Shown here piece by piece: positions 1,457 through 6,802 of a DNA stretch of 32,197 bases. Position 1 is the stretch's first letter. The number at the start of each line of letters is the position of its first letter. The position numbers and the translations under genes are program-made. The stretch spans positions 1 to 32,197 of IMG/VR virus record IMGVR_UViG_2660237933_000002, one strand, 5' to 3'. Below the pieces are notes generated by a model, which saw nothing but the letters and a program-made list of their open reading frames with translations, was not told where the DNA came from and did no database searches. Source of the DNA: a virus. Lineage: Duplodnaviria > Heunggongvirae > Uroviricota > Caudoviricetes.

Positions 1457-2044
1457 TCAGAAAGGAGGGTAATCGTTCTGGCTGTAACCATAATCATCTG
1501 CATGATTCTGGCTTACGTTTTTAGAGCGATTGTCTTTATCTTTGAGGCTGGCAACCATGTTGGCGATAGTTTCTGGTTGCTTGCCTTCCGCCTTTTCTTT
1601 AAGGGTTTGACCTGTTTTTGCAATAAACGGGATGCGTATTTCCATCTGGTAGCTGTCTGCGCCAGTCTTTTTGTTTGTGGTTAATACTTTCTGGAGCACT
1701 AACCCGATTTTCTTTCCATGAAATTCAGGAGCAACAAATTTACTGGCGGAAACCATATGTTGCGTTAATTGTCCAATCCCGGCACACCCCATCATGGCGT
1801 GGACGACATTTGCGCCAAATTTATTTTCCGTTCCGTCATTTTTCTGAACACAGACGCTAAGATATTGGATTTTACGTCCGTCGTCGGATTCGCCAGAAAA
1901 CTCAATAAATTTGGCTCCTTTTTCTGATTGCTTTAGTTCTGCTTCAGTAATGGTAATGATATGAGCGCCAGTTTCGTTAATAAAACCACCTTGCCCTGCG
2001 GTCAGTGCTGCTTCTTCGTTATAAGTAAAAATCACGTTGCTCAT
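1457..2044 (-). CDS. SSB-like / recombination-associated protein, 195 aa (partner of the Sak4-like ATPase)
   Basis: Start overlaps the ATPase stop as ATGA; the C-terminus ...DDYGYSQNDYPPF resembles the acidic protein-interaction tail of bacterial SSB (DDDIPF). The family assignment is inference. Confidence 0.4.
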   Translation of the reverse strand: MSNVIFTYNEEAALTAGQGGFINETGAHIITITEAELKQSEKGAKFIEFSGESDDGRKIQYLSVCVQKNDGTENKFGANVVHAMMGCAGIGQLTQHMVSASKFVAPEFHGKKIGLVLQKVLTTNKKTGADSYQMEIRIPFIAKTGQTLKEKAEGKQPETIANMVASLKDKDNRSKNVSQNHADDYGYSQNDYPPF

Positions 2045-2721
2045 GCGGCGTTTTCCTTAATTTGATGAACATTATTGATGCCGTAGTAATCACAAACAGT
2101 GGCATCGACGAAAGAGAGATCGTTATCAATCTCATTGGAGTCAAACATTCCCATTGGGGATTTAACAGTGTCTGCACCGTTGTTTTTTGTGGTGAAAAAG
2201 AACTGGTCATCACGGGTAAGGGTGCGAAGAACTATAGTAAACATGCCTTCGACAGTGATTTTCTCGTCCAGCATTTTGCCGATAGTTTTCATTTTCACGC
2301 GCCCTATAGGGGTTTCTTCGGTGTGTGCAAGAAAATAGACTCTCAGGTCATCAGGTGCATCCTGTGCAGCCTTAATCACCTCCCATGCGTGGCGGCCTAT
2401 CTCAGTAAATTTATCAAACGATTTTTCTTCTGAGCGGCGCATAAACTCATTGCTCATCACATACTGGAAGTCATCAACAATAACGATTCTTTTCCCGTAT
2501 TCGTGAGCACGCTTAATTACGGCAACTATTACGTCCCATTTGTCAGTGGTAACTACGGTTCCTTTTTTTGCTCTGGCATCCCATGCAAGCCAGTCTTTTG
2601 ATTTAAATGGTAGCGGCTTGCCTATTGGTTTTATAAGTATTGCTTCCTCTGGATTGATATTTCTCATGCTGGTTGATTTTCCGGTGCCAGACTCACCGAG
2701 TATTAATGTCGCAGTTCCCAT
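2041..2721 (-). CDS. Sak4-like RecA-fold ATPase (AAA_24-type), 226 aa
   Basis: N-terminal Walker A LILGESGTGKST and Walker B RIVIVDDF; size and architecture match phage Sak4 single-strand annealing ATPases; GAGGTG RBS upstream; occupies the position of lambda Red genes. Confidence 0.65.
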   Translation of the reverse strand: MGTATLILGESGTGKSTSMRNINPEEAILIKPIGKPLPFKSKDWLAWDARAKKGTVVTTDKWDVIVAVIKRAHEYGKRIVIVDDFQYVMSNEFMRRSEEKSFDKFTEIGRHAWEVIKAAQDAPDDLRVYFLAHTEETPIGRVKMKTIGKMLDEKITVEGMFTIVLRTLTRDDQFFFTTKNNGADTVKSPMGMFDSNEIDNDLSFVDATVCDYYGINNVHQIKENAA

Positions 2722-3663: not shown

Positions 3664-3963
3664 TCAAATAAGTGGTTTGCTGCCTAATTTCATTTTCTGG
3701 CGACCAACACAAGTCACACCCATTTCACTGCGTGGCTTGCGGTAGTAAATACGGTTCTGTTTACGCTCGACTTCTTCTGCCTTCTTGCAGCAAAGGCTTC
3801 CTAGTGATGCTGCTTTGTCTGCTCTGACGCAACCAGAGAGCTTTAGCGCAATTTTTCGCGCCAGTCGCTGCTCTTGCATTGCCTGTTCACGTTGAGCCTG
3901 TCTGCGTGCTCTGCGGCGATTTCTGGCGTTATCGTCAGCCAGATATGTAATGACTACTGTCAT
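3664..3963 (-). CDS. N: N-like transcription antitermination protein, 99 aa
   Basis: Arginine-rich motif NARNRRRARRQAQRE near the N-terminus; C-terminus YYRKPRSEMGVTCVGRQKMKLGSKPLI parallels lambda N (...YSKPGERGITCSGRQKIKGKSIPLI); GGAGG RBS 5 nt before the ATG at 3963. Confidence 0.8.
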   Translation of the reverse strand: MTVVITYLADDNARNRRRARRQAQREQAMQEQRLARKIALKLSGCVRADKAASLGSLCCKKAEEVERKQNRIYYRKPRSEMGVTCVGRQKMKLGSKPLI

Positions 3964-4068
3964 GTTGACCTCCGATGATTGACTTTGGCGGTGACGCGCC
4001 GGGTGCTTATCTTCCGGTTGCCGTCGTGCAGCTGCACTTCACATCACCCCAAAGCCAACTACTCTTTG

Positions 4069-4111
4069 GTTCCCGCATTTCGGCGGGACAATCCCATCAA
4101 TGTTAAAGAGC
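4069..4111 (-). promoter_or_regulatory. nutL: nutL: boxA-like GCTCTTTAACA plus boxB hairpin (TCCCGC-CGAAAT-GCGGGA)
   Basis: Minus-strand reading of 4069-4111; the same boxA/boxB pair recurs on the plus strand downstream of cro (nutR). Confidence 0.6.
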
Positions 4112-4149
4112 CTGCCAATCTGTTCCGTTTGGCTACCAGCGTCCTGCTG

Positions 4150-4245
4150 ATGGCTTAAAGATAACTTAGGTTATAGGCACGGTCAATAACCTAATTTATA
4201 TTTTGTGGTAAATAAGTTATAAGTGATGGATAACAAAGGTATTTT
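4150..4245 (-). promoter_or_regulatory. OL operators and pL promoter
   Basis: 14-bp palindromes of the ATAACnnnnGTTAT class at 4161-4174, 4186-4199 and 4230-4243; minus-strand TTGACC, then 17 nt, then TATCTT overlapping the first operator, mirroring the pR arrangement. Confidence 0.55.
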
Positions 4246-4360
4246 ATTTTTGTAAATGTTGCTGATTGATTGGTGTTTGAGGGCTTGCGTGCGGGTGAAG
4301 TTGTTACCTTTGGCTTGATGCTTGTCTATGATGAGGATGGGTGATTGGGTGGCGATCGTG

Positions 4361-4390
4361 AGGCAAAGAAAACCCGGCGCTGAGGCCGGG
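4361..4390 (-). terminator. Rho-independent terminator ending the two-gene cassette
   Basis: Minus strand CCCGGC-CTCAGC-GCCGGG followed by TTTTCTTTG, starting 8 nt after the stop of the 310-aa gene. Confidence 0.6.
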
Positions 4391-4397
4391 TGAGATA

Positions 4398-5330
4398 TTA
4401 AAGAACCGATTTAACAAGATGGTTTTTACGGTACAGACCTATGCGATCATTGTGAATCTCAGTAGTCTCCACTAAAAGAGAAACAATCTGTCCGACCTTG
4501 TGTTTTTTTTGTATTAAATCTAGCATTTCAATCGGATAGGAAGCCTTTAAATGTTCACCACCAACATCAAGCTCCAGCTTCCCATATTTGGATAGAACGA
4601 CCAGTTCGCCTGTAACCGTTTCAGTAATGGGAGGGGATGAAATGGTTGATGTAAGTCTACTCACCAAGTACTTAATTTTATTGGAGTCAATAGTTGCCAC
4701 CTTGGTGCCATTACTAAATGGACCGGTCCAACTTGCATCAAATGTTAAGTTGTGTTTATCGCATTCCTCTACGATTCTCTTAAGGCTTACAGTGGAATTG
4801 TATCCAATTTCAGCGACGTGATTCATGAAGTTGTTGTCGTCATCGCTTAACAACAAATCGAATATGCCTTTTACAGCCTTGCTGGGTACTGTTTCTACTA
4901 ATTCTGCTATTCCTGTAGAGAAGGTGACGCCCAATTTTGTAGACCCAGGGGATAAATCAGCCAGCCTGAGGTTTAAGGAGCTTTTCACGTCGTAGGGAAC
5001 TTTTTTTGAGTCCTTGCCTGAGGCAATTTTGTGTGTTGCTCTTTGTATTAGCGCTGCAAGATTTGTTGAAATAGCCCCAAGCAGCTCTAAAGGAATAGAG
5101 CCAAAGTCAACCTCAGAGCCTTTCAGCCGCAGCTCAAAAAAATCGATAAGTGGGTGCCGACTATCTTGCTTTAATTTTTCGGCCTTCAAATCGCTCAGAT
5201 GAGAATCCATGGAGCGATAAAGAAGCATGTCAGCAAAGGACCTGGTTTTGTTTTGCTTCATTGCATCGACTTCTTTTTGAATGAAATCAATGCGTTTATC
5301 GCAATTTTTAAACATTGATTTATCATTCAT
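4398..5330 (-). CDS. Hypothetical protein, 310 aa, second gene of the cI-adjacent cassette (no recognisable motif)
   Basis: Long AT-rich ORF; its ATG overlaps the stop of the upstream nucleotidyltransferase-fold gene (ATGA at 5327-5330). Confidence 0.7.
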   Translation of the reverse strand: MNDKSMFKNCDKRIDFIQKEVDAMKQNKTRSFADMLLYRSMDSHLSDLKAEKLKQDSRHPLIDFFELRLKGSEVDFGSIPLELLGAISTNLAALIQRATHKIASGKDSKKVPYDVKSSLNLRLADLSPGSTKLGVTFSTGIAELVETVPSKAVKGIFDLLLSDDDNNFMNHVAEIGYNSTVSLKRIVEECDKHNLTFDASWTGPFSNGTKVATIDSNKIKYLVSRLTSTISSPPITETVTGELVVLSKYGKLELDVGGEHLKASYPIEMLDLIQKKHKVGQIVSLLVETTEIHNDRIGLYRKNHLVKSVL

Positions 5331-5806
5331 AAAAAAATCCTCACTAACCCTTTCGGGTTTTCACTGCGATCAAAACCAAACCAACCGCGCCAGTAGCTAC
5401 GCCAGTACTCATAATCATAGTTAGGGTCATCTAAATTCTTCATGAGTAGTAGGACATCAATTTTGTAGTTTTGTTTGATGTAGTTTCGGTCAAGCAAATT
5501 ATCGACGCGGCCCCGAAGCATGACAGGTATTGAGTTTATATTGTTATAGTCACATACCAACAAAATATCAATATCATCAGGCTCTGGTTTAGACGTGGTG
5601 TATGAACCATCAACCCATATTTCTGTAAAACAGCCATATTGAGCAGATAATTCTCGAATAGATTCGAGTAGCTGTATAAAATTACAGTATAGCATGCCTC
5701 GCCTGGATGATGAAGGAAAGCAATCGACACAATACGATTTTAATCCAGCTTCATCCATGTCATGGAACCCTGGCTCAAACAGGGGTGGGTAATTAATTTT
5801 ATCCAT
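5327..5806 (-). CDS. Minimal nucleotidyltransferase-fold protein (Pol-beta superfamily), 159 aa
   Basis: GS-x10-DIDILLV motif (WVDGSYTTSKPEPDDIDILLV) plus a downstream KIDVLLL strand; Cys-rich N-terminal segment (CVDC...C); AT-rich. Confidence 0.65.
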   Translation of the reverse strand: MDKINYPPLFEPGFHDMDEAGLKSYCVDCFPSSSRRGMLYCNFIQLLESIRELSAQYGCFTEIWVDGSYTTSKPEPDDIDILLVCDYNNINSIPVMLRGRVDNLLDRNYIKQNYKIDVLLLMKNLDDPNYDYEYWRSYWRGWFGFDRSENPKGLVRIFL

Positions 5807-5920
5807 AAAAAACCTTGCTATACATTTGTTTTTTTTATTAAAAATCTAACCACCGAAATGGTGACGGCAAGATGTTACATGGGGTTACAATCAGCCAATA
5901 CACCGCATTAAATAATTTTT

Positions 5921-5962
5921 TCACCAGCTATGCGCCGACCAGAACACCTTGCCGATCAGCCA
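5921..5962 (-). pseudogene. Fossil 3' end of a second cI-like repressor gene (encodes ...WLIGKVFWSAHSW-stop)
   Basis: About 40 nt, roughly 31/40 identical to the 3' end of the intact cI (...IIGRVFWSSHSW-stop at 5984-6024), same strand and frame logic; an upstream in-frame stop shows it is a fragment. Confidence 0.55.
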
Positions 5963-5983
5963 AACGTCTCTTCAGGCCACTGG

Positions 5984-6691
5984 TTACCAACTATGAGACG
6001 ACCAGAATACTCTGCCAATAATCCTTACGGTTTCATGAAATTCATCTCTATCCATTACTTCATCCGGGTACTCTTCGCGATTTATTGATCTGATTATCAC
6101 CGACGTGGGGGTGGCGATTAATGTTTTTACTCGTAACAAATCAGACTGGCAAATAGCGTAGGTTTTACCATCTCTGATTGTGGTATCTTGCGTGTTAACA
6201 CCAACAACATCGCCATCGTGAAGCGTTGGTTCCATGCTTTGCCCTACAACCCTAACTAGCTTGGCTGATCTTTCAGATACCCCCATCTTTTTTAGATAGT
6301 GCTTTCTGAAAACCAAAGAGAACTCCGATGATTCCTCTAGCTCGCAGCTACCGCTTCCAGCTGAAAGCGAAACGTTAAGAAGAGGCAACGCAACAAACTC
6401 GTCATCGTTTCTTTTAATGTCTTCCCATACCACAGCTTTTAAAGATGACTCACGGATATTGGATGGTTCTTCATGTGCACCATCCCTCATTTCACCAATA
6501 CCAGAACTAAGCCATTCAGGGCGCACTTTTAAAGCATTGGCTAATTCAACCATCTTGCGAGATCCGTTTGTTTTACCGGACGACATCTTCTGTATGGCTG
6601 GCTGAGATATTCCAACCATGTCAGCAAGCTGTGATTGTGATACCCCAGCTGAGCTCATGGCTGCATTTAGTCTTTCTGCGAATGTTTTCAT
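5984..6691 (-). CDS. cI: CI-type prophage repressor (HTH_XRE plus S24 LexA-like peptidase domain), about 235 aa
   Basis: N-terminal HTH (SQSQLADMVGISQPAIQKM), Ala-Gly linker site, C-terminal GQSMEPT serine motif; I place the start at the ATG at 6691 (the track used an upstream TTG at 6721). Confidence 0.85.
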   Translation of the reverse strand: MKTFAERLNAAMSSAGVSQSQLADMVGISQPAIQKMSSGKTNGSRKMVELANALKVRPEWLSSGIGEMRDGAHEEPSNIRESSLKAVVWEDIKRNDDEFVALPLLNVSLSAGSGSCELEESSEFSLVFRKHYLKKMGVSERSAKLVRVVGQSMEPTLHDGDVVGVNTQDTTIRDGKTYAICQSDLLRVKTLIATPTSVIIRSINREEYPDEVMDRDEFHETVRIIGRVFWSSHSW

Positions 6692-6703
6692 ACCCACAAA
6701 TCT

Positions 6704-6779
6704 ATAACTACGGTTATCCAAAGTAAAATAACAAAGGTTATTGCTATTTTTTATAACTTGAGTTATCTTTGGTTATAAT
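6704..6779. promoter_or_regulatory. OR operators with divergent pRM and pR promoters
   Basis: Three 14-bp palindromes ATAACTACGGTTAT (6704-6717), ATAACAAAGGTTAT (6728-6741), ATAACTTGAGTTAT (6753-6766); pR candidate TTGCTA (6741-6746), 17 nt, TATCTT (6764-6769); TATAAT also at 6774-6779. Confidence 0.6.
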
Positions 6780-6802
6780 TAATGACCACAAGAGGTATGC
6801 TC

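Follow-up and report, generated by a model that had tools for sequence, protein, structure and literature searches.

What do two genes lying between the cI repressor gene and the leftward promoter pL of a lambdoid virus genome contribute to the phage or to its host? The genome in question is IMG/VR virus record IMGVR_UViG_2660237933_000002, of which positions 1 to 32,197 were analyzed (this whole stretch of 32,197 nucleotides is called the window in the following), and the two minus-strand genes, here called A and B, form a cassette at 4361-5962. In a first-pass annotation, made from the DNA letters without database searches, the pair had been described as a candidate prophage defence module that could be assigned to no named defence family. 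Below we show that the cassette has a counterpart among the catalogued defence candidates and that it pairs a predicted nucleotidyltransferase with a partner carrying a predicted OB fold. Our favoured reading is that it serves in defence or exclusion and that the enzymatic activity of A drives it, and to this we give a probability of about 0.55-0.6.

The relationship to a catalogued candidate became evident from profile searches with the PADLOC models. Protein A matches PDC-M63A (PDLC04744) with an expectation value (E) of 1.1e-41 over residues 1-158 of its 159 amino acids (aa), and protein B matches PDC-M63B (PDLC04749) with an E of 7.5e-45, followed by five more M63B models at 2.5e-37 to 2.7e-18. 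The arrangement is also that of the catalogued cassette, which is defined as FAM_00167>>FAM_00523: A is followed by B, adjacent and on the same strand. By sequence the pair is therefore, on all three structural counts, a member of PDC-M63, a bioinformatic defence candidate, and the statement that it could be assigned to no named family did not survive this profile hidden Markov model check. PDC-M63 is cassette CAS_00189, with a count of 45, in the “guilt by embedding” study of Payne et al., who took their PDC candidates from cassettes lying within loci of BREX, DISARM or type I restriction-modification (RM) systems, once mobilome families and those of non-defence function had been set aside. 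PHROGs annotates both A and B (the latter as phrog_6603) with “unknown function”.

The object as such is already catalogued, and its sequence has been public for years in phage mEpX1, where DNA 99.6% identical to the cassette (window 4362-5962) is found between cI and N with both genes labelled hypothetical. The full cassette is present in 18 of 5426 complete E. coli genomes and in three distinct sequenced phages. A literature search gave no characterisation of DUF6932 (the Pfam family of A), of PDC-M63 or of the cassette genes under any other name, and in the literature on PDC-M63 we found no account of the prophage slot described below or of a nucleotidyltransferase + OB-fold anatomy. What is new here is this anatomy, an invariant Gly-Ser loop, the strict linkage of A and B across phyla and the repeated capture of the pair between cI and the terminator tM.

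The genomic setting of the cassette is clear. The two genes are translationally coupled, as both open reading frames and their overlap confirm, with the stop codon of A and the start codon of B sharing the ATGA at 5327-5330. A search of the window for the operator pattern ATAAC-N4-GTTAT returned 6 matches against 0.73 expected by chance, and these cluster at OR and OL (Table 1). The operators at both places, together with an N-like gene beyond them, put the cassette between the cI stop codon and OL/pL, and bear out the proposal that it occupies the rexAB-equivalent slot, within the cI-to-tM transcription unit. In lambda, rexAB lies in this slot between cI and the terminator. The cI gene is the presumed source of PRM transcription reading into the cassette. 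The difference in composition that had been noticed is also real, as the cassette has a guanine plus cytosine (GC) content of 0.402 (40.2%) compared with 0.488 (48.8%) for the window and 0.437 (43.7%) for cI.

The terminator following B had been taken as the cassette's own. It is, however, 93% identical to a feature of phage 933W annotated as “tM; putative terminator for pM transcript”, and the same terminator was found in many Stx phages that do not carry the cassette. By sequence comparison it is thus the backbone tM and no part of the cassette, which helps the argument for expression in the lysogen, since the order of the unit becomes cI - A - B - tM. Its hairpin is kept in the minimum-free-energy fold of the 56-nt region 4355-4410, with -14.5 kcal/mol. 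In 933W (region 7407-12449) the order is cI - L0084 - L0083 - stk - L0081 - tM, where stk encodes a Ser/Thr kinase. Since one and the same tM bounds different cargo in 933W, the interval from cI to tM acts as an exchangeable cargo slot in lambdoid phages. The resemblance of our cassette to lambda RexAB and 933W Stk consists in slot, orientation and accessory nature, and the tM boundary is as in 933W, whereas there is no relation in sequence or architecture: the cassette has no RexB-like protein with four transmembrane segments and no kinase domain. RexAB identity, already denied in the first-pass annotation, was rejected by us as well on the lack of transmembrane segments and of any PADLOC Rex match.

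Upstream of the cassette the same annotation had pointed to a fossil cI 3′ end, and such an end is present; in fact two are stacked directly past the stop codon of the resident cI. The lambda-type tail NQWPEETFG plus stop occupies 5956-5985 and a second tail, IGKVFWSAHSW plus stop, occupies 5921-5955. They match the cI 3′ ends of HK544, VT1-Sakai and K-12 lambda-type prophages at 100%, and the cI gene of mEpX1 terminates at the lambda-type tail. Evidently the stacked tails are scars of serial replacement of repressor alleles by recombination next to a resident cassette. An RNA component in the style of a type III toxin-antitoxin system or a retron was considered and rejected, because scans of 3900-7100 gave no Rfam match at E up to 1 and no tandem repeats. 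Across the five homologous loci compared there was no conserved promoter upstream of A.

Turning to the proteins, A had been proposed to be a nucleotidyltransferase from a short GS-DxD signature. It matches Pfam DUF6932 at 1.8e-24 and phrog_9194 at 3e-64, and its conservation was assessed in a set of 41 homologues with identities down to 35%. Invariant in this set are G13, F30, R36, W64, G67, S68, T71, K73, P76, D78, D80 and E149, plus a C-terminal stretch R136-S-Y-W-R-G141 with F143 and F145; H15, E62, D66, D117, W142, G144, R147, K152 and G153 are conserved in at least 90% of the homologues. The protein thus shows the hG[GS]-x9-13-[DE]h[DE]h pattern of minimal nucleotidyltransferases together with a third carboxylate (D117) and the alpha/beta core fold, so that the proposed signature stands with regard to the catalytic residues, and only the spacer between GS and DxD needs to be corrected from 10 to 9 residues. 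The AlphaFold2 model of A has a predicted local distance difference test (pLDDT) score of 96, and the nearest fold matches are minimal nucleotidyltransferases and MNT antitoxins (7ae2_B, 7ae9, 8xeh, 8xeo and 1no5). The profile of A aligns weakly to the palm of DNA polymerase beta, while PDB sequence searches with the single protein and with the profile gave nothing significant. Judged by its residues, A holds the full catalytic set of the Pol-beta superfamily plus a family-specific surface, and is a real yet divergent minimal nucleotidyltransferase, predicted to be catalytically competent and with no close structural relative.

A Cys-rich N-terminus had been listed as a further feature of A. 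Each of the cysteines is conserved in just 5-39% of the relatives, so there is no Cys motif in the family, and the idea of a zinc-binding N-terminus was rejected. Fusions of DUF6932 to other domains were absent among the 120 listed of 337 profile matches, all of which were single-domain proteins of ~145-190 aa.

Could A be an antibiotic (small-molecule) nucleotidyltransferase of the ANT/Lnu/KNT type, and B unrelated cargo? Matches of A to these enzymes exist, but they span the shared N-terminal core only, and A has no equivalent of their C-terminal helical substrate domain. NCBIfam, resistance models included, gave no match for A or B, and the strict coupling of A and B across phyla argues for a joint function. 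We therefore regard this explanation as very improbable.

Protein B belongs to a family that was represented by 271 cluster representatives in a full-library profile search, nearly all with 300-320 aa and a single architecture. When 70 members with identities of 20-46% were compared, S130 and W201 were the only invariant residues; E/D63, G77, P80, L81, G105, G129, G176, W212 and L306 are near-invariant. Conserved sites other than S130 and W201 are mostly Gly, Pro and hydrophobic residues, and no catalytic-looking pattern is seen. The structural model of B (pLDDT 83) shows three parts, namely an N-terminal helical hairpin or coiled coil (~10-57), a central alpha/beta domain (~60-228) and a C-terminal five-stranded barrel (~229-309) with a helix between strands 3 and 4, for which an OB fold was assigned. 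The loop with G129-S130 sits between two strands in a low-confidence block, 121-130, with a mean pLDDT of 60, and this segment is probably flexible according to the model. Because of the few invariant residues, the Gly/Pro/hydrophobic character of the conservation and the OB fold, B looks like a binder and not like an enzyme.

It was also correct that B has no transmembrane segment. The maximal Kyte-Doolittle hydropathy over 19 residues is 1.38 for B and 1.11 for A, with a median of 1.03 for the family. Pfam searches on B and the 70 relatives gave no consistent family, nor was there a consistent match to HEPN in this set, the only instances being two single-member matches at E 0.005-0.016. The absence of a HEPN-like R-x4-6-H motif needs a slight modification, as a string R39-x4-H44 does exist in B; it is not conserved. 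For these reasons and with respect to the OB fold, the identity of B as a HEPN partner was rejected. PDB sequence searches with B, as a single sequence and as a profile, gave only one match below E 0.01, to 37 residues of a cell-wall surface protein. Residues 62-146 (window ~4893-5147, minus strand), which form the most conserved part of B, match the N-terminus of PDC-M32A, a further PADLOC candidate, weakly, at 3.4e-5, and this sequence match hints at a domain common to candidate defence proteins.

The two genes belong together. In 6 of 6 independent distant contexts a homologue of B directly follows the DUF6932 gene (E 1e-100 to 1e-115), the two genes overlapping by 4 or 14 bases or standing 10 bases apart, and the same adjacency was seen in every further locus examined. 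The partnership between A and B is obligate, and this holds across phyla. Unrelated S24 repressors immediately precede the pair in at least ten phage or prophage loci, among them mEpX1, PhiR30_1, Erwinia phage vB_EhrS_59, three Salmonella prophage contexts, a Pectobacterium prophage (two assemblies) and a metagenomic phage. In these loci the pair faces a cro/cII-type operon, and repressors and replication modules are unrelated. The occurrence behind unrelated cI alleles in E. coli, Salmonella, Pectobacterium, Erwinia and a metagenomic phage makes it a mobile accessory module, in line with the horizontal acquisition that had been suspected.

In two of these phages the DUF6932 gene is annotated as short, with 119 aa in vB_EhrS_59 (L021:2522-3004) and 141 aa in PhiR30_1 (L022:2501-3004). 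The open frames correspond to full 157-aa proteins, starting with MAKPCF in vB_EhrS_59 and MEKPSF in PhiR30_1, so the start codons were misannotated, and a truncated or orphan A as a clue to which of the partners might be toxic was rejected on this ground.

Outside phages, in other phyla, the pair abuts type I RM genes, MmeI-type (type IIG) RM genes, a YoeB/YefM pair or a large DUF4011 helicase. In one mobile element its neighbours are Lar, RadC and methyltransferase genes of anti-restriction type, and one context has no defence neighbours. Together with the PDC-M63 match, the RM-adjacent distant homologues support a defence role by association, and to that extent the suggestion of a defence module is upheld; the sole deletion test that we found was negative (see below).

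How might such a module work? By its layout and by the fold of A, the cassette would come closest to the HEPN-MNT (type VII) toxin-antitoxin systems: a small predicted nucleotidyltransferase comes first, a coupled partner lies downstream, and among solved structures MNT antitoxins are nearest to A in fold. In mntA-hepT, too, the nucleotidyltransferase gene is the first one. The difference lies in B, which has no HEPN domain and for which the OB fold is the sole one assigned. With HEPN-MNT, where the nucleotidyltransferase restrains its partner by nucleotidylation, as the template, we favour the following scheme. PDC-M63 would be a horizontally mobile, protein-only two-gene “moron” in the cI-to-tM unit of lambdoid prophages, in which A would be an active minimal nucleotidyltransferase and B a non-enzymatic protein binding nucleic acid or an oligonucleotide through its OB fold. 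The two proteins would be produced in coupled amounts and work as a complex, giving a toxin-antitoxin-like abortive infection with type VII logic. In the lysogen A would hold B inactive, either by nucleotidylation, for which S130 in the Gly-Ser loop would be the prime site, or through a nucleotide product loaded onto B. A superinfecting phage would interrupt the control by A, and free B would then bind single-stranded DNA (ssDNA) or RNA via the OB fold and arrest the cell or the phage. The specific arrangement in which A restrains B is tentative, and we would rather doubt it than rely on it. More tentative still is the extension by which PDC-M63 would be a new branch of nucleotidyltransferase immunity, with a soluble OB-fold protein that is held off by A, blocks phage replication by binding alone and replaces RexAB on the repressor transcript of many temperate phages. 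That the pair acts in defence, which way regulation runs and what is targeted are all points that we infer.

The OB fold also allows for a scheme like that of Hailong and Clover, to which the logic of the cassette could bear resemblance. Here A would constitutively make a short oligo(deoxy)nucleotide, a ligand that signals “all is well” when bound to the OB fold in B, and phage nucleases or changes in the nucleotide pools would remove the ligand and free the central domain of B as the effector. Hailong and Clover are likewise two-gene operons with an accessory Pol-beta-type nucleotidyltransferase (HalB and CloB), the product of which restrains the effector; an OB fold would suit an inhibitory product, being a natural receptor for ssDNA or oligonucleotides, and the lack of conserved catalytic residues in B is what one would expect of a ligand-gated protein. 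Moreover, the active-site motif [D/E]h[D/E]...h[D/E]h, given in the Clover preprint for CBASS, Hailong and Clover enzymes, is present in A. The effectors are different, however. In contrast to HalA, which a review describes as a membrane channel, B is soluble, and in contrast to CloA, an HD dGTPase, neither B nor its family gave an HD/dNTPase match. Nor can an effector activity be named for B, and A, with its 159 aa, has no evident primer-binding or second-substrate domain. What A shares with HalB is the generic Pol-beta motif, with no Hailong entry among the listed PDB sequence and fold matches; the profile and fold searches with A showed no similarity to the Clover enzyme either, and HalB and CloB were compared by description only. 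On balance we consider this scheme unlikely. Membership in CBASS (cyclic-oligonucleotide-based antiphage signalling system) itself was rejected, as its CD-NTase of ~300 aa with a C-terminal helical lobe and its signal-activated effector have no counterpart in the pair. HEPN-MNT, Hailong, Clover and AbiE/MenAT were likewise discarded as families to which the pair might belong, each for want of a defining partner or family trait.

The conserved residues of A outside the catalytic core (G13, H15, R36, K73, R136-F145, R147 and E149) suggest a specific macromolecular substrate, and this leads to a scheme with the roles reversed, resembling AbiE and MenAT. MenT and AbiEii are nucleotidyltransferase toxins that block translation by modifying the acceptor stem of tRNA, so toxins of this kind are established. 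By analogy, A would be the toxin, nucleotidylating tRNA or another RNA or DNA 3′ end, and B would be antitoxin and sensor, its OB fold detecting phage ssDNA or replication intermediates and then releasing or recruiting A; the same fold could also deliver a nucleic-acid substrate. Common to both cases is the pairing of a Pol-beta nucleotidyltransferase with a non-enzymatic partner, the two being encoded by a mobile module that has links to abortive infection. On the other hand A belongs to DUF6932 and not to DUF1814/AbiEii, with PADLOC at E up to 1 giving PDC-M63A only; it is half the size of MenT and AbiEii; the enzyme-first order is opposite to that of abiEi-abiEii; the partner is not an HTH protein of the AbiEi/MenA kind; the gene upstream is cI; and the closest folds of A are antitoxin-type MNTs. 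We find this scheme rather improbable. A defence role is claimed by all three defence models alike, and the confidence expressed in each of them is not meant to add up to certainty.

Several observations weigh against a defence role altogether. Deletion of PDC-M63AB in its native host, E. coli NILS69, left the infectivity of 10 virulent double-stranded DNA phages unchanged (PMC12409345). B has no recognisable effector domain in Pfam and fold searches, and its central domain matched no family. The OB domain is only mildly basic, with a median isoelectric point of 8.2 in the family and 6.8 for this B, and OB folds have proteins and sugars among their ligands as well. Expression of A and B in the lysogen, from PRM, is something that we infer from position only, and read-through from cI could be attenuated by a hairpin at 5849-5868 in the leader of A, which is weak and only terminator-like in a terminator scan (the fold of the leader has a z-score of -0.44). 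Finally, the pattern of RM embedding and neighbourhood also fits plain addiction modules.

This last point leads to the non-defence explanation, by which the pair would be an addiction module stabilising the prophage or island, or would serve the phage in counter-defence or in modulating lysogeny or replication as a two-subunit nucleic-acid nucleotidyltransferase. The lack of a phenotype in NILS69 and the low frequency of the cassette in E. coli genomes and sequenced phages agree with it, as do the element of anti-restriction type and the context free of defence neighbours, and selfish toxin-antitoxin modules, too, are typically found embedded in RM loci. It accounts less well for the slot between cI and tM, which is a classic one for exclusion genes expressed in lysogens (rexAB in lambda, stk in 933W), and for the fact that the pair turns up repeatedly, in phyla that are unrelated, next to RM genes of type I and of type IIG, and Payne et al. 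had chosen the pair after removal of mobilome and non-defence families. We hold this explanation to be possible, if still on the doubtful side, and keep to a defence or exclusion module as the favoured reading.

The accessory module formed by A and B is real and conserved, it can be tested, and it plausibly serves prophage defence. If it is active, one more exclusion module expressed in lysogens would be found in the classic rexAB/stk slot, and a function would be gained for Pfam DUF6932 as well as for an unnamed family of ~270 clusters at 50% identity. A minimal nucleotidyltransferase paired with an OB-fold protein was not found among the mechanistically described defence systems in the literature, and if defence is shown, the theme of a nucleotidyltransferase restraining an effector, known from HEPN-MNT, Hailong and Clover, would be widened to a non-enzymatic effector that binds nucleic acid. 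If it is inactive, this would call for caution with candidates that are proposed from embedding in defence loci. The system is readily tested, since mEpX1, with its nearly identical cassette, is a cultured K-12 phage.

Table 1 Features of the immunity region around the A-B cassette (positions in the window).
Feature	Position	Strand	Description
N-like gene	3664-3963	-	arginine-rich motif
OL operator pair	4161-4199		two ATAAC-N4-GTTAT; marks pL; left limit of the slot
Intrinsic terminator tM	4362..4391	-	hairpin 4372-4391 + T-tract; 7-bp stem with 6 G-C pairs; just past the B stop codon
Gene B	4398..5330	-	310 aa, partner protein; PDC-M63B; phrog_6603; no Pfam family
Gene A	5327..5806	-	159 aa, predicted minimal Pol-beta-superfamily nucleotidyltransferase; DUF6932; PDC-M63A; phrog_9194
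Leader upstream of A	5807..5920	-	cassette-specific, common to mEpX1; AAGG ribosome-binding site
Two stacked fossil cI 3′ ends	5921..5985	-	frame translations; directly past the resident cI stop codon
cI repressor gene	5984..6691	-	HTH_3 + Peptidase_S24 (Pfam); upstream of the cassette, co-directional
OR operators	6704-6766		three ATAAC-N4-GTTAT, from pattern search

Some other genes of the window deserve mention. On the plus strand, 8429-10822 encodes a DnaB-type replicative helicase of 797 aa, the DnaB_C domain of which is split by a LAGLIDADG/homing-endonuclease insert, that is, an intein. It is followed at 10901-11512 (plus strand) by a 203-aa protein with HNH_3 and AP2 domains, of the free-standing homing-endonuclease type, and this gene, between dnaB and ninB, is part of an island that stands out sharply as AT-rich, with a GC of 0.34-0.38. 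In the early-left operon, 2041-2721 (minus strand) encodes an AAA_24/AAA_22 ATPase of 226 aa with the Walker A motif GESGTGKST, and translationally coupled to it is a 195-aa open reading frame without assigned family (1457-2044, minus strand). The sole PADLOC match of this second pair is a weak P-loop match to mad8.

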